A DNA stretch of 34,400 nt, taken from IMG/VR virus record IMGVR_UViG_3300032323_002985, positions 1 to 34,400 of that record, one strand, 5' to 3'. Below the pieces are notes generated by a model. The model had not been told where the DNA came from and ran no database searches. It saw nothing but the letters and a program-made list of their open reading frames with translations. Source of the DNA: a virus (lineage: Duplodnaviria; Caudoviricetes). Shown here piece by piece: positions 17,813 through 34,400 of this stretch. Made by a program: the position numbers and the translations under genes. The first letter of the stretch is position 1. Each line of letters begins with the position of its first letter.

Positions 17813-17844
17813 TTTGGTTATATCAGATAAAATTCGTATATTTG
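17813..17844 (+). promoter_or_regulatory. Bacteroidota sigmaA-type promoter (-33 TTTG / -7 TAnnTTTG)
   Basis: TTTG 17813-17816, 20-nt spacer, TATATTTG 17837-17844, 18 nt before the primase ATG. Confidence 0.85.
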
Positions 17845-21941: not shown

Positions 21942-22104
21942 CAACCGGTAATATATTTTTAGGTGGGGTCTTCTTTGAGGACTCCACTTTTTCTTTTATA
22001 AGCGTTTCAATTAATCCGCTTATTTTATATCCTTTCTCTTTACAAAATTCCTTTAATAATTGATGAACATCAGCATCAATTTGTATCATTGCGTACTTTT
22101 TCAT
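21931..22104 (-). CDS. Ribbon-helix-helix DNA-binding protein (57 aa; not in ORF track)
   Basis: Manual translation: MKKYAMIQIDADVHQLLKEFCKEKGYKISGLIETLIKEKVESSKKTPPKNILPVVKN*. Pattern is a beta-strand, helix, G-x-x-x-S turn, helix. It fills an otherwise 254-bp gap. Confidence 0.8.
   Translation of the reverse strand: MKKYAMIQIDADVHQLLKEFCKEKGYKISGLIETLIKEKVESSKKTPPKNILPVVKN
21963..21997 (+). terminator. Rho-independent terminator after the SbcD-SbcC fusion
   Basis: GTGGGGTCTTC-TTT-GAGGACTCCAC, an 11-bp stem with two G:U pairs, followed by TTTTTCTTTT. Confidence 0.75.
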
Positions 22105-22195: not shown

Positions 22196-25100
22196 ATGGC
22201 AATAATTAAAAAATTCGCAGAAAATCTTACCCAACCACTCACATCGTTTGGTACTTTTTTAGTGGATACTAATCCAACTTCAACGTACTTTAAAATAACC
22301 GAATTTAAAGATGCATTTACTGGAGGTAAAAATGGTTTTCTGATTGAAGGTTCGGAACATCTTATGGAATCTACTGAAATAAAGATTCAGATATTAGATG
22401 TTAATGGTAACCCAATTTATTATGAGCCTGGTAATGGTGTTCCGGAATATTATGAAGGTACATCTAAATTAGTTGCTGTTTATGTATATGAGGATACACC
22501 AATAGGTACTGCTAAAATAACTGTATTAGGTGAGTTAAAAACTTATTTAGATGAAGGTGGAGCTGTTTTACCAATACCGGATGATTGGAAAAATGTATAT
22601 AATGTTAAGTGGGAAAAGGAATTTAAAGTAAATAGATTACTTTCAAATGAAGATAAAGTAAGATTTTATAGAAGACCACAAGTAACAATAAATGAAATAG
22701 TAAAACCTATTTTTAATAATGTAACAACTACTGTTGTACAAACAGGTTCATTAAGTGGACAGGCGCAAGCACCAAGGGTTGGAGAACCTTTAAGTGATTA
22801 CAATGCACCAACAACTTATTTATTAGAAATTGAAGATTCAACAAATTGGACTGGTTCAATAGTAGGTAATACCATCAACGTACCAGCATTAGGATATAGC
22901 GCAGTAGTTGATAGTGTAATAAATAATAAACAGGTATTAGTAATAAATCCATATACTGAAGCATCACCACTTGGTTCAGCATACAGTCCAATTGTTACAA
23001 ACTTTTTAGATGAAGGATATACTGCATCATTTAATTATGTAGAAGGTGTAAACAATTTAAAAACAGCATTGACCGGTTCATTTGCTAAAATTGTACTTTC
23101 TGATTTAACTACATTTGTTGGTGATGTTTCTAGGGTAAAAATATTTAGAAAATCTCAATCAGATTTAGCAGATTATCAATTTATTCAAGAGATAAGACTT
23201 GAATCAAATGAAATACTTAGGGATTTAGAATCACAAGTAAAAAATGAAGAATTTTATGGTATTTTTGATACAAGCAATTTTAAAAACTATTGGATTACTT
23301 CATCAAATAATATTACAACTACATTTAATCAAAATTATTTATATAATTCGGTAAAGTTAAATAGTAATAATTCTAACTTCTTTCACACAACAGCTTCGTT
23401 AGGTGTTACACAAAATATAGAATATACACTTACATTTAATACACGTATTGGAACTGGGTCTGTAAATCCAAATAATTATATAAGAGCATTTTTAAGTGGT
23501 TCAAAGAGTAGTAGTGTTAATGGTTCTCCTAAAATTGTTCAAGTAGAAAAAAATATTGTAACTGTAACATCTGATAGTTCTTTGTTACAAAAGAACCAAA
23601 TAACTGCAAATTTTAAAGCTGAGGAATCTAATAATACAAAACTTTATTTTGAAGTTAAAGGTAATGATTGGTATATATCTGATGTTAGTTTAAGAGCTTC
23701 GCAAGAAACAGCATATTCTCCTGATGAAATTACATTTATTCAAAGCGTTCCAAGAACTTTACCAGAAGAAACATTTGATTATAGATTTGAATTTTACGAT
23801 ATAAATAACAATTACATTCCTGTTTTAGTTGAAGAAAGTAAAACATTTAATGGAGGTAATATACAAAGAATACAAAAAGGATTAGTATTTACTCCTCGTT
23901 CTTTACAATTTCAATTTGATTCTGGCTCACAACCAGTTCCACCAACTGTAGTTGGTTTTACAGTAACAAAAAATTTATTAACTGGTTCGATAACATATAC
24001 ATCTCAATCTTTTGATTTTGATGGAAATGAATTATCGGGTTCTGACTACACAGCATCTTTTACAGGTAGAAGATATCCGGGTTTACTTAGTGATATTACA
24101 TCCGATGCACCAACAATGACAGTTGGTAACTTTACAGGTTCAAGAACTGATAAGACTGTACAATTAATTAAAATTACTGGTGAAGTTGAAGGCTTTACGG
24201 ATACGGTAATATTCAGTAGAGTGTTAGATGGATTTGGTGGTGTAAATTATTTAATTAGACCTTATAGAGGAACTCAAATTAGAAATAGTAGTACTGCATC
24301 ATTAGAATTACAAGCAGTTCGTATTGATGGTGTAAATGATATCGAATTAAGTAGTACAACTAAACCTGAAAAAGGATGGCCTGATAAACAACTTCATATT
24401 ATATCACGTTCGGCAGATGGGGCTGAGAAGTTTGTAAACTTAGCATACGCATCATCAAGTAGATACATATATGGATTAACTACTGGTTCATTGGGTAGTG
24501 GTGAAATAAATTATAACGCAACTTTTAATAGAGATTCAATTGATTTTAGAAGAACAATATATTTGATTTCATCTCAATCAGCAGCAAGTGGACCTGCATT
24601 CTTAACATCTGGCTCGGTTGTAGCATCTATAATATTAGAAGATTTGCAAGATGGATTGGATAGTGGTATTATAACATATAATGCAGATTCGTTTACAATA
24701 AATCCAAGAACAGAAACAACATTTAGACCTTCATTTGCATTTGCTACTGCATCTTTTGCAAAAAGAGGAACGGCTGCATCTGAAATTGAATCGGTAACTG
24801 CATCATTTCAGGTATATCCATCAATGTCAATAAATAAAGATTGGGTTCCTGAATATTGGATGTATTATCATACACAAAGTTTACATCCAACTATAACTGT
24901 TTCGGCAAGGGATGAGAATAGAAATATAATACCATCGCAAGTAGTAAGTGGTAATGTTAGAAGTCCATTAAATCAAACTAAAACTTTAACATTAGCGTTT
25001 ACATACACCGAACCTTGGACATCCGCATCGGTTACTATTGATAAAACATTTACAATTGTTCCTGAAGGTAAGCAAGGTGATGAGAGTATTATATTCGAAG

Positions 25101-28100
25101 TAAATCCAGTAGCTGTAACTTTAGGAGCAAATTCAAGAGGTGTAGTTAATGATTTTATACCATCCATAACTGATATTAAATTAAAGCAGGGTTCAAGGTA
25201 TTTAGCATTTAGTTCTAGCGCTGGAGTTTTAAATAACTTAGATACACATGGTACATTCTACATAGCAACATCTTCAATTAGAGAGAATAGAGTTAAAGCA
25301 GGTAATGTACATTTTACATCATCGTTTGGAACTCCATACACAGCATCATTAATTGTAAGTGCTTCATCAAATATGACAGATTTGAGTGGAAGTATTGAGT
25401 ATCCATTAATTATTCATCCATATTACACATCTTCGATTTATACAGCAAGTGTAGTTGTAAATTATACTAAAGTATTAGAAGGACCTCCACCAATTCAAAT
25501 ATTAATAACACCACCAAACACAACATTAACTGCGGATGAGGTTGGATTTGTAACACCAGTTGGATACGCACCAACTAATACAACAATACAAGTAAAAGAA
25601 GGCGAAGATTTTTTAAGATTCACAACTCAATCAGCAGCACCTGGTACTTGGAGAATTAATTCAATTGAAACTAGAGGTGGTTCTATTTGGAATATAAGAA
25701 CAGGTTCATTATCTTCTTCTTCATTAAGTACTGCAACAATAAATTATAATAGATTTGATTATCCGTATGTTTCCGCAAGTGCATTATATACAATTCAAGT
25801 ATATCCATTTGCGTTAGGAGCTGGACATCAACCAACATCATCTATCTATACTCGTACTCAAACATTTACAAAAAATGTATCAGTCCCAAATGCTAGGACA
25901 GTAGAATTAAAAGCAAATCCATATACTATAAATTATGATAGAGATGGGTATAGAGTTTCACCTGAAGGTGATGTTGAACTAAAAGCAACAGCTCTGAATA
26001 CAACTGGTTCTGCTTGGTTTACTTTATTTTTTGTTGATACGGATGGTTCTGAAACTTTATATGATGGACCTTACTTTGAAGGAGCTGGTATAACTGAAAA
26101 AACATTTTTCATACCTGGAACAGACGCTGCAGGTCCTGAAGAAAATAAAACTTGGAGAGTTAAAATAAGCGATGGTAATGTTTATACATCATCTATATTA
26201 AATCCATATAGAGCTGAAGGTCAATTAACGATTGCAGGTATTAAGGCAGGTGCGGATGCATATAAAGTATCTCCTGATAATATATCAACATCAATTACTG
26301 CGGAATTATTTAGTACATCTTCAATTGGAACGGCTATTAAATTACCAACGTATAAAGGTACTACTCCTTTGATAAATGTTACATCTGGTAATTATCCACC
26401 ACCACAACCAACCGATTTGGATAATTTAGAAAACTTAATTGGTATATTAGGTTATTCATCTGCATCTATTGTTTACAAATCACCATGGATTACACTTCCA
26501 TCAAATAGATTAACAACAAATCCAGCATCTATGGGTAATATTATAGCTTGGGATAAACCAGCTATTAATAGAAGTGGTGAAGTTGTTTATAAAATTGACT
26601 TTGAAGGATATTCTCCATTTGTAGCAAACGATTTTATTAGTAGACCTCCTACTAGACAAACGGAATTTGTAACACAATCATTCGCTGTTCAATTCACCGA
26701 ACCAGCACCATACGATGTTAAGATGCAGAATGAAAATTCTTCTGTTGTTTATAGAGTATCTGGTGAAGTTGAGTTAAATACAACATCTAATATAATACGA
26801 GCATATAGAGGTACTTATGAACTTACTAATAGACCATTAGGATTTACTGGACCTAAAATTGATGCGTATGGTAGTTCATCGTATGAGTATCAATGTACGG
26901 TAGAAGTTCACTCTAAACCAAATTGGATTCATTTAGATAATGACAATATTGATGTAGATGATAAATTACCAGGTACACCGGCTAGTATGCCTGGTATTAC
27001 TGCATGGGATAATCCTGAAACAAATCCAACTGCTGAAATTGTATATCGTGTAAATTGTGAAGGCAGACAAACTTTCTTTAAAACACAATCATTAGCTATT
27101 CAGTTTGAAGGAGCAGTTGGACCTGGTATTGTTATGAGAGGTGAATGGTCACCATTAACTGATTATATAGGTCAAGTTGAAACTACAAACAATCGTAGAG
27201 ATGCAGTAACTTATTTAGCAACGCAAGATACCGTAAAGTATTACGCAGCAATTAGTGGTTCTGGTCCTAATACAAATGACCAAAATGGTGTACCTGTTGG
27301 GTATCATGCACCAACTGTTGATGGTAATAATGATTGGTGGGAATATTTGGGTGACCAAGAATTCTTTGTAGCAGCTAAGATTGCTATATTTGAAGAGTCT
27401 TATGTTAAGAATACAATCAATGTTGGTACAAAAGATGGTACTGGTGCATTTGCAAACATTGTAATAGCTGGTGGTAGAACTGACCCATATATCGCTATTG
27501 GACAAAACGCAACTATTGGTACATCTGGAAATTCTGGTACTACATTAAACCCTGGTGGTAGTGTAATTGGATACGATAGACCGGGTATTTTCTTGGGAAT
27601 TTATGAGCAGGGAGCAAGTGGTACAACTGGTAGATTCTCTATAAAAAATACAGCAGGAAATAGATTCCTCAAATGGAATGGTGAAGGATTGGAAATCGCA
27701 GGTGATATTACTGTAACAGGTGGTAATGCAGCAACATCTCAAGCCGTAAGTGGTTCAGTAGCATCTGGTTCATTTACAGCAACTCAAATAGCAGCAGCAA
27801 ATACTGCAGTAGCTGTAAATGCTCTTAGTGGTTCATTAGGTGCTATGGCAGCTATTAGTGCAATTAATAGTGGTAATGCTACCACATTTATTGGACCGGG
27901 TGTTATTGTGGCAAATATGTTTGCTGGTACTGCGATTCAATCTACAAACTATGTAGCAGGTACTCATCCTAATTTTTCACAAACTGGTACGTTTATTAAT
28001 TTGGCTGGAAGTTCAATACGAACTCAAGGATTTGCGGTAGATAGTTCCGGAAACGCTTTCTTTAGAGGAAATTTAAGTGGAGCAAGTGGTACATTTACTG

Positions 28101-29626
28101 ATACCGTAACTGTTGGTACTGGAAATGTTGCAATTTCAATGACATCTACAAATGGAACTGGTAGTTTAATTGGACCTAATTTTTCATTAACATCGGCTGG
28201 ATTGAACGTATCAAATGCAACTATTGCTGGTACTATAAGTGCAAACGCAGGTTCTATTGGAAGTTGGACAGTTGAAAATAATATTCTTAGGGATGCAAGT
28301 AGTAGGATTTTCCTTGACCCATCACTTCCTGGTCTTGCTATTAGAGAAAGCGGTACTACTCGTCTTAAAGTAAACTTTGGTGAATTAACAGATTTGAGTT
28401 CAACTGGTATAAATTTAGCATCTGATGTATTGAATTATTACAATACATTTAGTGTAGGTAATGTCAACTTTGATGAGGAAAGTTCGGGTGAAATATTTGA
28501 TGTTGCGGCAGGTACATACATTGATGCTAGTGTGTCTTGGCCATCTGGATTTAGTGTAATACAAGCATTTCAACGTGAGGGTGGTGTAAACATATATTGG
28601 GGATATCGAATCTATAATGGTGCAACCCTAGTACAAGAAAATATAATATCTTCTGATTATTGGGTAGGTGGTCCTGATGATTCATCTGCAAATTTTTATG
28701 GATATAATGGTAATTTTCAATTTAGTGCACCTGAAGCAGCATCCACAACATATACCTTTAAATTATTTATAAAAGCTGATGGTTATAACTATGAGGCTGG
28801 TGGCTTTTTTGGAAGTTCATTTGCAGTTAGCGCATACCTACCAACCCCATCAATAACAGCTGCAGCAAATGTCAATATTGTTGAGTTGACAAATAAAGGA
28901 ATTCAGATTGCAACTTCTACTAATAGATTTATTAAATTAAGAAGGGAAGATTCAGCATCCATTCCTGTTTTAGATGCAAAAGGATTTCTTAGATTAGAGG
29001 GAGATACAGCAAATACATTATTACAATTAATTGGTACAACCGGAGCAGGTAATACAGCTATAAATATAGCAAATGGTACTGGTAAAATTGCTATGAATGG
29101 TAACAATATTGAAATGGGTAGTGGTGTTGTTTCTTGGAATACCGCTGGTTCTAATCCGGGTTATTTAACAACTTATAATGATGGAGGACTTAGACCTGCT
29201 ATTATAATAACAAATGTTGGTAGTCCCGGTGGAGGTACTATTAGGGGTATGGAAATATCTCTTTCCACTTGGAGAATTGGTAGAAATACTTCAGCAAGAA
29301 GATTTAAAGAAGAAATAGAAGATTGGCAACATCCATCTATATTAGATGCTATAAATAACGTACCAATAAGGACTTATTATTGGAAAATAGATAAAGATGC
29401 AGAAACAAGACCACAACAAATAGGTATAATTGCTGAAGAATTGGAAGCGGGTGGATTGGAAGAATATGTAGATTATGATTGGTTTGAAGACCCGGAGAAT
29501 CCAGAAGGTCCTAAACAATGGATGACTTCTGGTATTGCTAAGCAAGAATTGGTATTCGTATTATGGAAAGCAGTGCAAGAATTAACACAAAAAGTAAAAG
29601 ATTTAGAAAATAAATTGAATTCTTAA
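22196..29626 (+). CDS. Giant tail fibre/tail protein (2476 aa) with C-terminal intramolecular chaperone (peptidase S74)
   Basis: TSARRFKEEIEDW...IRTYYW...IGIIAEELE...LWKAVQELTQKV is an S74/ICA domain with Ser and Lys retained. Gly/Ser/Thr-rich fibre-like segment (GNAFFRGNL, GTISANAGSIGSW) and tandem beta-rich repeats upstream. Confidence 0.88.
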   Translation: MAIIKKFAENLTQPLTSFGTFLVDTNPTSTYFKITEFKDAFTGGKNGFLIEGSEHLMESTEIKIQILDVNGNPIYYEPGNGVPEYYEGTSKLVAVYVYEDTPIGTAKITVLGELKTYLDEGGAVLPIPDDWKNVYNVKWEKEFKVNRLLSNEDKVRFYRRPQVTINEIVKPIFNNVTTTVVQTGSLSGQAQAPRVGEPLSDYNAPTTYLLEIEDSTNWTGSIVGNTINVPALGYSAVVDSVINNKQVLVINPYTEASPLGSAYSPIVTNFLDEGYTASFNYVEGVNNLKTALTGSFAKIVLSDLTTFVGDVSRVKIFRKSQSDLADYQFIQEIRLESNEILRDLESQVKNEEFYGIFDTSNFKNYWITSSNNITTTFNQNYLYNSVKLNSNNSNFFHTTASLGVTQNIEYTLTFNTRIGTGSVNPNNYIRAFLSGSKSSSVNGSPKIVQVEKNIVTVTSDSSLLQKNQITANFKAEESNNTKLYFEVKGNDWYISDVSLRASQETAYSPDEITFIQSVPRTLPEETFDYRFEFYDINNNYIPVLVEESKTFNGGNIQRIQKGLVFTPRSLQFQFDSGSQPVPPTVVGFTVTKNLLTGSITYTSQSFDFDGNELSGSDYTASFTGRRYPGLLSDITSDAPTMTVGNFTGSRTDKTVQLIKITGEVEGFTDTVIFSRVLDGFGGVNYLIRPYRGTQIRNSSTASLELQAVRIDGVNDIELSSTTKPEKGWPDKQLHIISRSADGAEKFVNLAYASSSRYIYGLTTGSLGSGEINYNATFNRDSIDFRRTIYLISSQSAASGPAFLTSGSVVASIILEDLQDGLDSGIITYNADSFTINPRTETTFRPSFAFATASFAKRGTAASEIESVTASFQVYPSMSINKDWVPEYWMYYHTQSLHPTITVSARDENRNIIPSQVVSGNVRSPLNQTKTLTLAFTYTEPWTSASVTIDKTFTIVPEGKQGDESIIFEVNPVAVTLGANSRGVVNDFIPSITDIKLKQGSRYLAFSSSAGVLNNLDTHGTFYIATSSIRENRVKAGNVHFTSSFGTPYTASLIVSASSNMTDLSGSIEYPLIIHPYYTSSIYTASVVVNYTKVLEGPPPIQILITPPNTTLTADEVGFVTPVGYAPTNTTIQVKEGEDFLRFTTQSAAPGTWRINSIETRGGSIWNIRTGSLSSSSLSTATINYNRFDYPYVSASALYTIQVYPFALGAGHQPTSSIYTRTQTFTKNVSVPNARTVELKANPYTINYDRDGYRVSPEGDVELKATALNTTGSAWFTLFFVDTDGSETLYDGPYFEGAGITEKTFFIPGTDAAGPEENKTWRVKISDGNVYTSSILNPYRAEGQLTIAGIKAGADAYKVSPDNISTSITAELFSTSSIGTAIKLPTYKGTTPLINVTSGNYPPPQPTDLDNLENLIGILGYSSASIVYKSPWITLPSNRLTTNPASMGNIIAWDKPAINRSGEVVYKIDFEGYSPFVANDFISRPPTRQTEFVTQSFAVQFTEPAPYDVKMQNENSSVVYRVSGEVELNTTSNIIRAYRGTYELTNRPLGFTGPKIDAYGSSSYEYQCTVEVHSKPNWIHLDNDNIDVDDKLPGTPASMPGITAWDNPETNPTAEIVYRVNCEGRQTFFKTQSLAIQFEGAVGPGIVMRGEWSPLTDYIGQVETTNNRRDAVTYLATQDTVKYYAAISGSGPNTNDQNGVPVGYHAPTVDGNNDWWEYLGDQEFFVAAKIAIFEESYVKNTINVGTKDGTGAFANIVIAGGRTDPYIAIGQNATIGTSGNSGTTLNPGGSVIGYDRPGIFLGIYEQGASGTTGRFSIKNTAGNRFLKWNGEGLEIAGDITVTGGNAATSQAVSGSVASGSFTATQIAAANTAVAVNALSGSLGAMAAISAINSGNATTFIGPGVIVANMFAGTAIQSTNYVAGTHPNFSQTGTFINLAGSSIRTQGFAVDSSGNAFFRGNLSGASGTFTDTVTVGTGNVAISMTSTNGTGSLIGPNFSLTSAGLNVSNATIAGTISANAGSIGSWTVENNILRDASSRIFLDPSLPGLAIRESGTTRLKVNFGELTDLSSTGINLASDVLNYYNTFSVGNVNFDEESSGEIFDVAAGTYIDASVSWPSGFSVIQAFQREGGVNIYWGYRIYNGATLVQENIISSDYWVGGPDDSSANFYGYNGNFQFSAPEAASTTYTFKLFIKADGYNYEAGGFFGSSFAVSAYLPTPSITAAANVNIVELTNKGIQIATSTNRFIKLRREDSASIPVLDAKGFLRLEGDTANTLLQLIGTTGAGNTAINIANGTGKIAMNGNNIEMGSGVVSWNTAGSNPGYLTTYNDGGLRPAIIITNVGSPGGGTIRGMEISLSTWRIGRNTSARRFKEEIEDWQHPSILDAINNVPIRTYYWKIDKDAETRPQQIGIIAEELEAGGLEEYVDYDWFEDPENPEGPKQWMTSGIAKQELVFVLWKAVQELTQKVKDLENKLNS

Positions 29627-29669: not shown

Positions 29670-29927
29670 ATGGAATTACAAACCGAAAAATTAGAAGAAA
29701 GTGTTTTATCTAAAATAAAAGAACTTAACAATCGTAAAAACGAATTGATTGTAAATGCAGGGCAATTAAATTTAGATGTAGCTGAATTGAAAAAGATTAT
29801 AGTAGTTGTTGAATCGGAATATTCAGCAGCAAATAAAGAATTAAATTCAATATTAGCTGATTTAAACCAAAAATATCCAAACGGAGAAATTGATTTAGTT
29901 GAAGGCACAGTGATTTACCAAAAATAA
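29670..29927 (+). CDS. Small coiled-coil protein (85 aa)
   Basis: Heptad pattern ending in KYPNGEIDLVEG; preceded by ATATTTAT; follows the tail fibre gene. Confidence 0.7.
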   Translation: MELQTEKLEESVLSKIKELNNRKNELIVNAGQLNLDVAELKKIIVVVESEYSAANKELNSILADLNQKYPNGEIDLVEGTVIYQK

Positions 29928-29928
29928 A

Positions 29929-29960
29929 TTTGGTAATTAGAAAATAAATTCGTATATTTG
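29929..29960 (+). promoter_or_regulatory. Bacteroidota sigmaA-type promoter driving the glycosylation cluster
   Basis: TTTG 29929-29932, 20-nt spacer, TATATTTG 29953-29960. Shares AATTTGGT and AAATTCGTATATTTGT with the promoter at 17813. Confidence 0.85.
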
Positions 29961-29967
29961 TTACAAT

Positions 29968-32139
29968 ATGGCAAAGAAAAAGTTACTTTATGTCTGCCCA
30001 CATCTTTCTACTGGTGGACAACCACAATACACATACAAGCAAATAAAACACTTTATTGATGACTTTGAAATTGAAGTTGTTGAGATAAATAATAGTGGTG
30101 GAGATGCTTATGTAGTTCAAAAAAATAGAATCAAATCATTAGTACCTGTTCACACTTTGGGTGATAACAAACGTGCAATATTTGATGTTATTAGAACATT
30201 TCAACCCGATATAATTCATTTTCAAGAAATACCTGAATATGATTTGCCAATTGATATTGTTGAAAAAATATTTTCAAAAGATAGAAAATATTTCATTATA
30301 TGTTCAACGCATGGTTCATTAACAAACCCATCTGAAATAGCATACCATCCAGATAGATATGTTTTAGTTTCCGAATGGAGTAGACAAAGATTTGAAGGAT
30401 TGGGTATTGAAACGGATGTATGGGAATATCCAATTGAAGATTATGTATTTGATAAAGAAGCTGCACAAAAGGAATTAGGATTAGACCCAACATGGAAACA
30501 TGTCCTAAATGTAGGATTATTTTCATCTGGTAAAAATCAAGGTGAAATATTTGCAATAGCAAGGCAGTTAGAAAAATATAAAATCAAATTTCACTTTGTA
30601 GGGAATCAGGCTATGAACTTTGAAAATTATTGGAAACCCCTTATGGAGTTTAAGCCTGATAATTGTATTATATGGGGTGAACGAAATGATGTAGATACAT
30701 TCTATGCAGCATGTGATATGTTTTATTTTAGTTCTAAGTTAGAATTAAATCCACTTTCAGTTAAGGAAGCATTGAGTTACAAACTACCTTCTATATTTAG
30801 AAAGTTATATACATATTTGGATACATACGATAATAATCCATTAGTAACTTATATTGATGATGATTTAAAATTAACTAAGAGAATTATCTTAGAAAAATTA
30901 CAACCTGAATTTAATGAAATACCGGGTTGGTTTGCATATTCTGAATTATATAATAATGTAGTTGATTCGGCAAATGGTGGTGAAACATTTGTAGAAGTTG
31001 GTGCATGGTTTGGTAAATCAACAAATCATTTAGCAACTAAAATTAAAGAATCTGGTAAAGATATTAAATTTACATCGGTAGATACTTGGAAAGGTACGGA
31101 TGATGAACAATTGCATCAAAATATAGTTAATGCATTTAATGGTGATATATTTTATGAGTTCGTTGATAATACAGTCCTTTCGGATAACTATGGTAGATTC
31201 AGTACAATAAAAGATACATCTAAAAACGCAGCTAATAATTTTGCCAACAATAGTATAGATTTTATTATGATTGATGCTGGTCATTCGTATGAAGCATTGA
31301 TGGAAGATTTAAATGTTTGGTATAATAAAGTAAAACCTGGAGGTATAATTAGTGGGGATGATTATGGTGTATTTGAGGGAGTTACTAGAGCAGCAAATGA
31401 ATATTTTTATGGACAGTTCCATCAAGGGTTTCGTTCATTCGTAAGAAGAAAACCTCGTATTCAAGTTAAGCACATGCTGACTAGACCTGATGATATGAGA
31501 GAAAGAGTTTCTATACAATCATTACAACAATTATCAAAATATGGAATAGATTACCAACCAATTATAAATGAAGTTTACGAAGGAATCCCACCTGCTGAAA
31601 ATTGTAGAAGACCTGAACATATAAGTAAAGATAATAAGCCTGGTGAATTATATCCTGGTGCCGGTTTGGGTTGGATGACTGGTAGACACTATGGTTGTTA
31701 TTTAGCGCATAGAAATGCATTAGAAACAATTGATGAGGAAAATTATGATTACACATTAATATTTGAAGCAGATGCATTTATCTATACTGGATTGGAGGAA
31801 TTTGTAGATATAGTACACAAAGCATGTTTTATATCAGAAAGAGATAATGCATACTTTATTTCATTTGCAAATAACCCATCAAGAGAAAAAACAAAAATTG
31901 ATGAATTCTTTACACAAACGGGCCCTAATCAAGACCTTGCACACTGCTACTTAATTCCAAATAGAACTAAACAATGGTGGATGGATAGATTAAATGATTG
32001 TGGGTGGGATGTTGGTGACCTTTGGTTTAATCATGTATTTTATCACTATCCAATGAGAAGATATACAACAAATAAAATGTATTCAAAACAAGCCGAAGGG
32101 TATTCACTATTGGATTTAACAGTTAAAACTTGGAGTTAA
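29968..32139 (+). CDS. Three-domain fusion: GT4-like glycosyltransferase + class I SAM methyltransferase + GT25-like glycosyltransferase
   Basis: GT4: PHLSTGGQ, VGLFSSGKNQ, CDMFYFSSKLELNPLSVKEA. Methyltransferase: FVEVGAWFGKST, IDFIMIDAGHSYE, VKPGGIISGDDY. GT25-like (weakest call): DDMRER, GCYLAH, IFEADA, AHCYLI. Confidence 0.8.
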   Translation: MAKKKLLYVCPHLSTGGQPQYTYKQIKHFIDDFEIEVVEINNSGGDAYVVQKNRIKSLVPVHTLGDNKRAIFDVIRTFQPDIIHFQEIPEYDLPIDIVEKIFSKDRKYFIICSTHGSLTNPSEIAYHPDRYVLVSEWSRQRFEGLGIETDVWEYPIEDYVFDKEAAQKELGLDPTWKHVLNVGLFSSGKNQGEIFAIARQLEKYKIKFHFVGNQAMNFENYWKPLMEFKPDNCIIWGERNDVDTFYAACDMFYFSSKLELNPLSVKEALSYKLPSIFRKLYTYLDTYDNNPLVTYIDDDLKLTKRIILEKLQPEFNEIPGWFAYSELYNNVVDSANGGETFVEVGAWFGKSTNHLATKIKESGKDIKFTSVDTWKGTDDEQLHQNIVNAFNGDIFYEFVDNTVLSDNYGRFSTIKDTSKNAANNFANNSIDFIMIDAGHSYEALMEDLNVWYNKVKPGGIISGDDYGVFEGVTRAANEYFYGQFHQGFRSFVRRKPRIQVKHMLTRPDDMRERVSIQSLQQLSKYGIDYQPIINEVYEGIPPAENCRRPEHISKDNKPGELYPGAGLGWMTGRHYGCYLAHRNALETIDEENYDYTLIFEADAFIYTGLEEFVDIVHKACFISERDNAYFISFANNPSREKTKIDEFFTQTGPNQDLAHCYLIPNRTKQWWMDRLNDCGWDVGDLWFNHVFYHYPMRRYTTNKMYSKQAEGYSLLDLTVKTWS

Positions 32140-33287
32140 TGATATACGATAATTTAGTTAAGAATTTAAATAATAAAGTTGAGATTGATAACAAAGTGTT
32201 TTTTCATTTTGTTAGAGGTGCTTTTTTAGAAATAAAGGGTAATAAACAATGTGAGTATCACGTTAAGTTTTTGAATAACCGAAATGGTAGAGTTTTATAC
32301 ACTACTAATATTTCAAATAATATGTGGACAAGATGTAATGTAGAATATTTTGTTGAATGGAAAATTGAAATATATGAAGGTGACAAACTTTGGTATGAAC
32401 ATGTGTATAATGCAGAAAATAAAAGAATATATGTTGCATTAGATTCTAAAGCATTAGGTGATAGTTTAGCATGGATACCTTATGTTGAAGAATTTGGAAA
32501 AGTGCATAATTGTAAAATGGTTACATCTACATTTATGAATACTATGTTTGAAAGTAGATATCCAAATATAGAATTTGTAGAACCTGGTACAAATGTACAA
32601 AATTTATACGCAATGTATTCAATAGGTTTATTTTATAACGAAGATAGTACAATTAATATTTACAAAAATCCAATAGACCCAAAAACACAAACAATGCAAA
32701 AGATGTGTTCTGATATATTAGGATTGGAGTATAAAGAAATAAAACCTAAATTAAAAGAAAGAACGCCATATATAGACCCAGCATACAAACAAGTGTGTAT
32801 AGGAATTCATGGTACTGCACAATCTAAATTTTGGAATAATCCAAATGGATGGCAAGATGTTGTAGATTGGCTAAATAATAGAGGATATACAGTAAAGCTC
32901 TTATCTAAAGAAGGTGATAACTATATGGGTAACAAGTTACCAACGGGTATTTTAACACATCCAAACGGCCCATTAGACTTGGTTATGGATGAAATGCTAA
33001 AATCAAAAGCATTTATTGGTATTGGTAGTGGATTGAGTTGGTTAAGTTGGGGACTTGATGTACCAACCGTATTAATTAGTGGATTCTCATACGATTGGGC
33101 TGAGATGAAAGATTGTATAAGAATAGCAGCTCCAAAAGGAAAGTGTGAAGGATGCTTTAATAGATTAAGATTAGATCCCGGTGATTGGAATTGGTGCCCA
33201 GACCATAAAGGTACAAATAGACAATTTGAATGTACAAAAAGTATTACATCCGAAATGGTAATAAAAGAATTGGAAAAGTTTTTGTAA
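32139..33287 (+). CDS. Autotransporter strand-loop-strand O-heptosyltransferase homolog (Aah/TibC, BAHT family)
   Basis: Likely start ATG 32139 (TAATG overlap). YFVEWKIEI, ALGDSLAWIPY, SKFWNNPNGW, FIGIGSGLSWLSW, VLISGFS, and iron-finger-type C-x2-C-x13-C-x11-C (CEGC...WCPDHKGTNRQFECTKSI). Confidence 0.88.
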   Translation: MIYDNLVKNLNNKVEIDNKVFFHFVRGAFLEIKGNKQCEYHVKFLNNRNGRVLYTTNISNNMWTRCNVEYFVEWKIEIYEGDKLWYEHVYNAENKRIYVALDSKALGDSLAWIPYVEEFGKVHNCKMVTSTFMNTMFESRYPNIEFVEPGTNVQNLYAMYSIGLFYNEDSTINIYKNPIDPKTQTMQKMCSDILGLEYKEIKPKLKERTPYIDPAYKQVCIGIHGTAQSKFWNNPNGWQDVVDWLNNRGYTVKLLSKEGDNYMGNKLPTGILTHPNGPLDLVMDEMLKSKAFIGIGSGLSWLSWGLDVPTVLISGFSYDWAEMKDCIRIAAPKGKCEGCFNRLRLDPGDWNWCPDHKGTNRQFECTKSITSEMVIKELEKFL

Positions 33288-33673
33288 TGAAAAAAATTTG
33301 GATAAATGGTTGTTTTGATGTTTTACATTATGGGCATTTTAAGTTAATAGATTATGCAAAATCTTTAGGAGATTTGATGATAGGTATTGATTCCGATGAA
33401 AGAATTAAGGAAATGAAAGGAGATGGTAGACCATTTCACACAGAAGTACAAAGAGTATTTAATTTAATGCAAATAAGGGATGTAGATAAGATTGTAGTGT
33501 TTGATAGTGATGATTCTTTGAGAAAGCATTTAGAAACTTACAAACCTGATATATTCGTAATTGGTGATGAATATATGTACAAACCTATTATTGGAGGTGA
33601 ACATGCAAAAGAAATAAAATTCTTTGGTAAATTGGATGGATTTAGTACCACAAAACTTTTAGATGATGAGTAA
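33287..33673 (+). CDS. HldE/RfaE domain II-like nucleotidyltransferase (heptose-1-phosphate adenylyltransferase, HldC-like)
   Basis: Start ATG 33287 (TAATG overlap). NGCFDVLHYGH (HxGH), GIDSDERIKEMKGDGRP and GFSTTKLL. Confidence 0.85.
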   Translation: MKKIWINGCFDVLHYGHFKLIDYAKSLGDLMIGIDSDERIKEMKGDGRPFHTEVQRVFNLMQIRDVDKIVVFDSDDSLRKHLETYKPDIFVIGDEYMYKPIIGGEHAKEIKFFGKLDGFSTTKLLDDE

Positions 33674-34400
33674 AGTATTAGTTATAGGAGAGAGCTGCAC
33701 GGATATTTTTGTATATGGGACATCAGCACGAAAATCTCCAGAAGGAAATGGGCCTGTTTTTATTCCAATTAGTGAAACCTATGGATTGGGTATGGCATCA
33801 AATGTTGTAAACAATTTGAGAGAAATGGGAGTTGAAACAAATATATTTTCTGATAATGGTAGTATTGTAAAGACTCGTTATGTTAATAAAGACACAAACG
33901 AACTTTATTTAAGAGTGGATGAGAACGATTCGGTTAATAGAATTGATACATCTAAATTATCTGACATATCTCAATACGATGCAATTATAATTTCAGATTA
34001 TTGCAAAGGATTTTTAACCGAAGAAGATATATCTAATATAGCATCTATGCATCCATTTGTTATCTTAGATACTAAAAAGAAATTGGGTGATTGGTGTAAG
34101 AATTTAAAATTTATCAAAATAAATCGATTGGAATGGAAAACCAATAAAGATGTAATAAGAGAAAACGAATGGTTGTTTGATAAAATTATATGTACTTTAG
34201 ATAAAACTGGAACAACTTACAAACATATCACATATCCAGTTATTCCAATTGAAAATGCAGATGTTAGTGGTGCAGGGGATACTTTCGTAGCTGGGTTTGT
34301 AGCTCGATATTTGGATTCGGAGGATATTAGTGTATCAATTGAATGGGCTAATTATTGTGCGGGTGAAGTTGTAAAGAAAAAGGGAGTTTCCGTATTTGGA
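33666..34400 (+). CDS. HldE/RfaE domain I-like PfkB kinase (heptose-7-phosphate kinase, HldA-like); 3'-truncated, not in ORF track
   Basis: Manual translation is open to the window end: MSKVLVIGESCTDIFVYG..RKSPEGNGPV..GMASNV..KTRY..LRVD..AIIISDYCKGFL..DVSGAGDTFVAG..ANYCAGEVVKKKGVS. Confidence 0.88.
   Translation, partial: MSKVLVIGESCTDIFVYGTSARKSPEGNGPVFIPISETYGLGMASNVVNNLREMGVETNIFSDNGSIVKTRYVNKDTNELYLRVDENDSVNRIDTSKLSDISQYDAIIISDYCKGFLTEEDISNIASMHPFVILDTKKKLGDWCKNLKFIKINRLEWKTNKDVIRENEWLFDKIICTLDKTGTTYKHITYPVIPIENADVSGAGDTFVAGFVARYLDSEDISVSIEWANYCAGEVVKKKGVSVFG

Follow-up and report, generated by a model that had tools for sequence, protein, structure and literature searches.

Background

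The closest described systems are the protein glycosylation pairs TibC/TibA and Aah/AIDA-I, whose transferases belong to the Aah/TibC family of bacterial autotransporter heptosyltransferases (BAHT; TIGR04414; 4RAP/4RB4; PMC4358343). The window analysed here is the whole of a 34.4-kb virus record (IMGVR_UViG_3300032323_002985), and the subject of this report is a four-gene operon at its 3' end, the second gene of which (gene 2) encodes a member of that family. Gene 2 is like TibC and Aah in its whole fold, including barrel, thumb and iron finger, but it is phage-encoded, about 29-35 % identical, branches apart from the Aah clade and has Val and Gly in place of Arg286 and Pro300. In contrast to TibC and Aah, it has no autotransporter nearby, it is coupled or fused to family 4 glycosyltransferase (GT4), methyltransferase and GT25-like domains, and its likely acceptor is Gly-X-Ser repeats. 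The explanation that we favour, and hold to be somewhat better than an even chance, is that the operon would O-glycosylate Ser in collagen-like (Gly-Ser/Thr-Ser)n segments of fibres on the phage's own virion, with heptose as the predicted first sugar.

Viral heptose biosynthesis enzymes are known, without a phosphatase, and their purpose has been called unsolved (PMC11573728, PMC11461863). The cyanomyoviruses P-SSM2 and S-SM2 carry an orthologous compact kinase (33-44 %) and a nucleotidyltransferase with the same R/K-x-x-G-x-S motif as the window, which together form a partial pathway; the window has a consumer enzyme in the same operon, whereas no BAHT was found in cyanophage records. Mycobacteriophage glycosyltransferases coat virion proteins, and capsid and tail tube subunits of actinobacteriophages are modified (PMC12619734), whereas in the window, from a phage of a Gram-negative host, a BAHT does the priming and fibre repeats are the likely target. 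In collagens with glycosylated Thr, such as vent worm cuticle collagen and Bacillus BclA, glycosylation can replace hydroxyproline (PMC11923368). The phage repeats resemble these in being Gly-X-Y with a hydroxy amino acid at Y, and differ in having Ser at most Y positions, almost no proline and heptose as the predicted first sugar. The resemblance of gene 1 to human COLGALT1 (GT25) is weak and of fold only.

No literature on phage BAHT enzymes or heptosylated phage fibres was found in a search outside which supplements and some subscription papers could mention such genes. The string 'heptos' was absent from the available main-text passages of moraphage, bS21-phage and jumbo-phage papers, and one huge-phage paper lists 'heptosyltransferase I' as a lipopolysaccharide (LPS) gene. 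The component families are known, and databases already label such phage proteins (UniProt A0A6J5SVC1).

Identity of the transferase

The gene 2 product scored 272.6 bits against TIGR04414 (curated cut-off 200), and TibC (4rap) was its sole match in a sequence search of the PDB (E 2e-52). Its predicted model (predicted local distance difference test score, pLDDT, 89) superposes on TibC 4rap with a template modelling (TM) score of 0.86 and a root mean square deviation (rmsd) of 2.5 over 373 columns, and has the N-terminal beta-barrel, GT-B core, thumb and iron finger; against WaaC-type LPS GT9 enzymes the TM score was 0.45-0.52. Identity as an LPS-type GT9 enzyme (WaaC/WaaF) was rejected (TIGR02193, 25 bits against 185; TM 0.45). 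An earlier note on this DNA had described a BAHT homologue with intact LGD and four-Cys motifs. Both motifs are present, and the TIGR04414 profile search and the TibC superposition bear out a BAHT rather than an LPS GT9.

The defining residues of TibC are Asp110, Thr226, Lys230, Trp305, Cys 339/342/358/370, Arg286 and Phe368 (PMC4358343). The equivalents of Asp110, Thr226, Lys230 and Trp305 in gene 2 are D108, T226, K230 and W301, and the four iron-finger cysteines, with predicted iron binding, are C336, C339, C353 and C365. These eight residues are retained in 56-57 of 57 distinct close relatives (the four cysteines in all 57). The hydrophobic thumb pair is Y262-M263 and the Phe368 equivalent is F363, both dodecamer-contact positions being kept; G296 replaces P300. 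TibC W305 touches the heptose itself (PMC4358343), and its equivalent is invariant in the relatives.

A tree was built by a quick method with SH-aLRT support only and a midpoint root, 15 rows being left out (14 near-duplicates and one truncated). In it the window falls within a broad and mostly phage group, separate from a clade of Aah and acetic acid bacteria; because of the type of support and rooting, no direction of transfer and no donor is claimed. The gene 2 family forms 2604 clusters when grouped at 90 % identity; at 50 % identity and E values no higher than 1e-30 there are 726. BAHT was found in 4 of 50,697 annotated phage records, one of them labelled Microcystis phage, and in no cyanophage record. 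Among the 23 window proteins there is no autotransporter family, in agreement with the earlier note, and virion genes flank BAHT in the relatives.

Gene 1 and its domains

Gene 1 matched PF00534, PF13578 and, weakly, PF01755 in Pfam, and its predicted model (pLDDT 82) gave Foldseek matches to BshA, MeT1 and COLGALT1; PDB sequence searches with gene 1 gave nothing clear. The GT4 domain (residues 2-315) was aligned by VIA-align with Z 22.5 and rmsd 3.5 over 293 aligned positions, with many tied matches, in a search that did not report the other domains. The middle domain is a class I S-adenosylmethionine (SAM) methyltransferase that matches the sugar O-methyltransferases MeT1 and NovP, and it is missing in some relatives. 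The C-terminal domain scored 20 bits against PF01755 (GT25; cut-off 24), and the whole model matched human COLGALT1 weakly (E 4.6e-7, 234 columns, matched range not given). Both parts of the glycosyltransferase/methyltransferase fusion that had been read in gene 1 are present, and the GT25-like domain makes three domains, not two. Among the 59 proteins longer than 500 amino acids in the top 68 distant BAHT representatives, BAHT is fused to GT4 in 30 and to a methyltransferase in 17, and these fusions argue for a single assembly line on one acceptor.

Operon layout and promoter

The window has the gene order of the complete 266-274 kb phages G001 and G002. One promoter followed by four overlapping genes had been proposed, and this layout stands: the four genes are coupled behind one Bacteroidota-type promoter (Table 1), the TAA of gene 1 and the ATG of gene 2 have one base in common, as do the TAA of gene 2 and the ATG of gene 3, and gene 4 starts within gene 3, at 33663 or 33666. 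The contig ends about one to two codons short of the relatives' stop, and sequence 3' of gene 4 is beyond reach in this genome.

The Bacteroidota sigma consensus at -33/-7 is TTTG/TANNTTTG (PMC6847099). The pattern has 7 matches in the window against 1.3 expected, TATTTATA by itself is hardly enriched (16 against 10), and a scan of the window for E. coli-type promoters was at chance level (71 against 76). The promoter is kept in 26 of 30 distinct upstream regions of relatives. In G001 this promoter type stands before replication genes and the operon, and TATTTAT(A/T) stands before many virion genes. Since its promoter class is shared with the replication genes, unlike the virion-gene motif, the operon probably forms an island of earlier expression among the late genes around it. 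The same promoter also occurs at window positions 17813-17844 and 21961-21989, ahead of a primase gene and a fused SbcD-SbcC gene (1048 amino acids), and the strong terminator after these genes marks a second early-type island within the late block.

The position of the cassette is constant in the relatives, between giant fibre and terminase/portal. Of 25 loci that were chosen solely for their terminase and extend 7 kb or more upstream, 20 have the cassette, and two of the remaining five contigs (G002 and G005) carry it farther off. The cluster had been placed directly behind the giant fibre gene; the fibre is indeed upstream, but an 85-amino-acid gene intervenes before the promoter.

Table 1 Location of the operon and of associated features in the window
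Feature	Position	Strand	Basis or remark
Bacteroidota sigma-type promoter	29929..29960	+	-33 TTTG, N20, -7 TATATTTG
Gene 1, 723-aa three-domain enzyme: GT4 ~1-315, SAM methyltransferase ~320-495, GT25-like GT-A ~496-723	29968..32139	+	Pfam, model, Foldseek
Gene 2, 382-aa Aah/TibC-family (BAHT) protein O-glycosyltransferase	32139..33287	+	TIGR04414 272.6 bits; TibC-like model
Gene 3, 128-aa HIGH-motif nucleotidyltransferase	33287..33673	+	TIGR02199 92.9, TIGR01518 52; phrog_7878; HldC/TagD mixed motifs
Gene 4, compact PfkB kinase, HldA (HldE domain I) type, ends at contig edge before stop	33663..34400	+	TIGR02198 99.3; best PDB match HldA 4e84
Three-triplet Gly-X-Ser/Thr stub, fibre residues 1775-1783	27518..27544	+	Only candidate acceptor of its kind in the window
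Giant fibre, 2476 aa, C-terminal S74 chaperone	22196..29626	+	PF13884; Ser 9.5 %, Thr 10.1 %; possible minor acceptor
85-aa protein of unknown function	29670..29927	+	Family 1: 116 proteins in 65/75 loci

Donor enzymes and heptose supply

The kinase (gene 4) carries the HldA motifs R.SPE, SDY.KG, D.K and DVSGAGDT in alignment to 4e84, and these are conserved in 24 distinct relatives. Kinase homologues occur in 34 phage records, mostly cyanophages, and the closest annotated relatives are the orthologous cyanomyovirus kinases, which are paired with the same nucleotidyltransferase. Next to this pair in P-SSM2 lies YP_214542.1 (L214:5722-6066), annotated 'phosphoheptose isomerase', which resembles a HAD phosphatase (DIDGT...DD) and could, we presume, do the GmhB step. 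The nucleotidyltransferase (gene 3) has an HldC-like KG..RP loop, yet TagD-like K-x-x-G-x-STT and GDEY motifs. Lys or Arg starts the STT motif in all 28 of its relatives and the KGGDY lysine is found in none; the four annotated HldE/RfaE2 sequences have KGGDY and no Lys or Arg at position 1 of the STT motif. The HldC-type motif is (F/L)xxGxSTT (PMC11461863), which the window nucleotidyltransferase does not match, and RTxGISTT of TagD is a cytidylyltransferase signature (PMC8262930).

The earlier note had assumed adenosine diphosphate (ADP)-heptose as the donor; with Val at the position of Arg286, this donor is uncertain. Because Arg286 is lost and the nucleotidyltransferase has a CTP-type motif, the donor of the window branch may be cytidine diphosphate (CDP)-heptose. 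Against CDP, the viral heptose enzymes tested made ADP-heptose (commentary, PMC11573728/PMC11461863), and the cyanophage nucleotidyltransferases have the same motif as that of the window.

Donor genes were counted, without de-duplication, in 71 viral loci whose sequence extends 1.5 kb or more downstream. Both genes follow BAHT in 30 loci, the nucleotidyltransferase alone in seven and neither in 34, so that the HldE-like pair is accessory and partial. GmhA was absent in the four records searched and GmhB in the five searched, among them the complete relatives G001 and G002, in which the kinase is present; a search for HldD gave weak general epimerase matches only, under the cut-off. Relatives without an adjacent kinase had no kinase elsewhere in any of three records, two of which are fragments. 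A self-sufficient phage heptose pathway was rejected on these absences and below-cut-off matches, and the suggestion that the phage has its own enzymes for nucleoside diphosphate (NDP)-heptose did not hold. With the pair often absent and neither GmhA nor GmhB found, some or all of the donor must come from the host.

A set of 151 genomes, from the phylum to which a Bacteroidota bin belongs, was searched for GmhA-like, HldE-kinase and BAHT genes. A GmhA-like gene was found in 107 (15 above cut-off) and an HldE-type kinase in 99 (75 above cut-off), and since both are common in the sampled Bacteroidota, many hosts should be able to supply heptose. BAHT occurred in one of the 151, on a 254-kb contig and grouping with the phage copies.

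Candidate acceptors

Virion proteins as the target, one of the options in the earlier note, are the best-supported reading, by the position of the cassette in the virion block and its co-occurrence with phage-encoded repeats. G001 encodes several giant proteins at a distance of 20-60 kb downstream of the cassette, and a further one elsewhere, that have Gly-X-Y runs of up to 92 triplets. Of the 642 triplets, 479 have Ser at Y and 533 have Ser or Thr at X, and proline is outside the eight commonest residues at either position. The specificity of TibC, which acts on Ser and leaves Thr unmodified (PMC4358343), fits the Ser at Y of the repeats. Such runs are also encoded by G002, G005 and G009; G003 and G004 miss the strict six-triplet pattern, and looser runs occur in neighbouring loci. 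The phage Mel-JY01 (PP395634) has a 149-triplet frame just upstream (<2 kb) of a GT4-BAHT fusion and two more repeat frames just after it.

That first frame (L075:2-3052, + strand, more than 1000 codons) lies under two minus-strand hypothetical coding sequences, probably a wrong-strand annotation. Mel-JY01 is labelled a Microcystis phage yet carries the cassette, the terminase block and rpsU, and its true host merits a check. G001 has a second, larger apparent cluster of glycan genes (G001:112000-141800, L081-L083; glycosyltransferase-, nucleotidyltransferase-, epimerase- and HAD-like, as judged by eye), which adjoins another Gly-X-Ser protein, of 1083 amino acids.

In a reverse test, viral contigs were picked by a Gly-Thr-Ser DNA pattern (80 of 152 loci listed); the listed loci include 19 distinct contigs that reach 50 kb or more. 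A Gly-Pro-Thr/Gly-Pro-Gln pattern served as the control, and its 54 loci gave 16 contigs of that length, of which 15 were searched. Among the matches listed, BAHT was above the cut-off in 10 of the 19 (6 of 7 near-complete contigs), against 1 of 15 controls (near-complete, 1 of 3; Fisher p 0.008 for the matches listed, with kinship ignored). The sole BAHT-positive control also contains long Gly-Ser/Thr runs, with 115 matches in all, and of those listed the first lies 2-4 kb away from the BAHT genes of that contig. G011, with repeats and without BAHT, is a fragment that begins downstream of the cassette position, and hence no counter-example.

Among 38 BAHT loci in cellular genome bins, seven have runs of at least four Gly-X-Ser/Thr triplets; four of these are in the mostly phage group and the remaining three are bacterial, outside the window subclade. 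In two Gammaproteobacteria bins, paired lipoprotein-like genes that end in Gly-Ser-Ser tails are transcribed divergently to the BAHT operon, and in Bordetella sputigena a gene with a Gly-Ser-Ser tail faces BAHT. These three loci are the support for repeat acceptors that is least bound by kinship. Gly-X-Ser/Thr runs were found in none of 26 loci of acetic acid bacteria, Bradyrhizobium and kin, some of which have SGG-rich neighbours instead; AIDA-type SGG repeats number at most one per window protein. The (Gly-Ser-Ser)n-tailed lipoprotein-like or secreted proteins beside the BAHT genes of the two Gammaproteobacteria bins and B. sputigena (L098:7820-11128, L102:7502-10627, L101:9905-12477), where there is no autotransporter, are a possible unrecognised acceptor class.

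Proposed mechanism

The phage BAHT system is real and most likely serves virion fibre glycosylation, the glycan itself being predicted. By its class, the host-type promoter would turn on the operon ahead of the virion genes. GmhA and a phosphatase of the host, together with a kinase and a nucleotidyltransferase from either host or phage, would then produce NDP-beta-D-manno-heptose, in the ADP or CDP form. The iron-finger transferase, probably as a TibC-like ring, may heptosylate Ser of nascent fibre chains in the cytoplasm. Judging from folds and fusions, the GT4 and GT25-like domains could lengthen the sugar and the methyltransferase cap it. The peptide (Gly-Pro-Thr)10 is a random coil that folds to a triple helix only if glycosylated (PMC11923368), and by analogy with glycosylated Thr in such model collagen peptides the glycans would stabilise a proline-poor triple helix and shield or tune the fibre. 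Heptose as the sugar, the Gly-X-Ser sites, extension, methylation and the role in folding or shielding are all what we infer. A more specific version, in which a TibC-type ring of large Bacteroidota phages loads hundreds of Ser in proline-free (Gly-Ser/Thr-Ser)n fibres with a methyl-capped heptose glycan that replaces hydroxyproline in triple-helix folding, with CDP-heptose from the CTP-type nucleotidyltransferase as donor, is speculative and appears doubtful.

Evaluation against alternative explanations

Several observations weigh against heptosylation of fibre repeats. TibC R286 contacts adenine N1 and is required for activity (PMC4358343), and it is V282 in gene 2. None of the 57 close relatives has Arg at this position, whereas each of the 33 proteobacterial rows does, as do 40 of the 142 distant representatives. 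The earlier assignment of genes 3 and 4 as HldE-II-like and HldE-I-like is right as to best family, and both fall far below the RfaE cut-offs (kinase, TIGR02198, 99.3 against 345; nucleotidyltransferase, TIGR02199, 92.9 against 181.5, with TagD next at 52); the best PDB matches of the nucleotidyltransferase are cytidylyltransferases. The long Gly-X-Y repeats lie off the window contig. The giant fibre, whose adjacency the earlier note had stressed, does neighbour the cassette, but it has three triplets only (relatives' fibres have a similar short stretch at the same site) and the long repeats are in other virion-block genes. The co-occurrence is not independent, since the positives are mostly related phages, and the contig sets are unequal in completeness as well as in size. 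A run of 92 triplets is found without any BAHT in G017 (130 kb, CheckV 100 %); we suspect this contig to be a fragment of a larger genome, no terminase being recognised by eye among its open reading frames of at least 150 amino acids. Known BAHT acceptors are beta-helices, not collagen (PMC4358343). Finally, an early-type promoter is equally compatible with a host target. The G017 repeat protein itself (L443:1096-12246) has 3717 amino acids, with 92 consecutive Gly-X-Ser/Thr triplets, and the phage is unrelated to G001.

The fibres could carry another sugar, the transferase branch using a non-heptose nucleotide sugar from the cytidylyltransferase-like enzyme or the host. R286 is replaced by V/L/I/T throughout the branch with the Tyr-Met thumb, and Q224 by H/F/Y, the KGGDY lysine of HldC is missing as described above, and seven loci have the nucleotidyltransferase without the kinase. 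The heptose-contacting Trp is nevertheless invariant, the kinase retains HldA motifs and has HldA as its best PDB match, and it accompanies the nucleotidyltransferase in 30 of the 37 loci that have the latter gene, so that another sugar seems improbable. Arg286 is kept in 4 of 11 BAHT genes from the repeat-selected phages, and its loss therefore marks the Tyr-Met branch and not all phage enzymes. Scarcely more probable is that the acceptors are other virion proteins, namely the giant fibre and Ser/Thr-rich beta-structured tail proteins, comparable to beta-helical TibA, with the repeats as a mere lineage marker. BAHT genes usually adjoin the substrate gene (PMC4358343), and the giant fibre, with 19 [ST]GS and 13 [ST]AS motifs, adjoins the cassette in most loci; but the repeat link holds in distant phages with BAHT beside repeat proteins (Mel-JY01, G037), and three bacterial loci show it without such a fibre.

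Phage glycosyltransferases and rfaE genes are commonly taken to modify the host surface (PMC7029224, PMC7824862); here the operon would glycosylate host surface proteins or envelope sugars early in infection to block other phages. BAHT is mostly missing in hosts. This explanation retains some weight because the promoter is early-type, being common to replication genes and not the virion-gene motif, and yet we regard it as quite unlikely: the cassette has a constant place in the virion block, tracks phage-encoded repeats and is without an exporter or membrane gene, and the fold of gene 2 is that of TibC, not of WaaC. That gene 1 modifies phage DNA, separately from the transferase, is very improbable. 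T4 alpha-glucosyltransferase is among its many GT4 structural matches (Z ~19) and a PHROG labelled DNA methyltransferase matches its middle domain, but 30 of 59 long homologues are GT4-BAHT fusions and the methyltransferase resembles the sugar enzymes MeT1 and NovP.

Genomic setting and neighbouring genes

The 23 window proteins include baseplate wedge proteins, lysins, primase, the fused SbcD-SbcC and the giant fibre, and the phage, which is large and uncultured, probably has a host among the Bacteroidota. Close strains occur in a sequencing run labelled freshwater metagenome. DNA contigs from four runs span the window region piecewise and none lengthens the contig; the sequencing-run search listed no RNA run that contains the region. 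Near the fibre C-terminus (29110-29408), 297 bases are swapped for 306 others in contigs of three other runs, which represents a variable tip of the fibre, and relatives also carry varied gene insertions between fibre and cassette.

The family of the 85-amino-acid protein borders the cassette on both sides in the relatives. In most of them two related small proteins, of 85-95 and 120-140 amino acids (window 29670-29927 and L001:12322-12711), take these places. A protein of about 1000 amino acids with an N-terminal HIGH-type motif, GRFQPFHKGH (L001:12742-16023), follows the cassette in 58 loci, directly before terminase.

Conclusions

If correct, the favoured explanation would carry BAHT enzymes beyond pathogen adhesins to a large, common aquatic phage group with a new acceptor class, and would offer an answer to the open question of the purpose of viral heptose enzymes (PMC11573728). 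Its further predictions are a collagen that lacks proline and is stabilised by glycans, and a Ser glycosyltransferase that acts processively on simple repeats; a GenBank phage carrying the system is available (Mel-JY01, PP395634). In the CDP-heptose case it would be the first physiological use of CDP-heptose, and glycosylation of Gly-X-Ser repeats would prove to be a system widespread in viruses and found in some bacteria.

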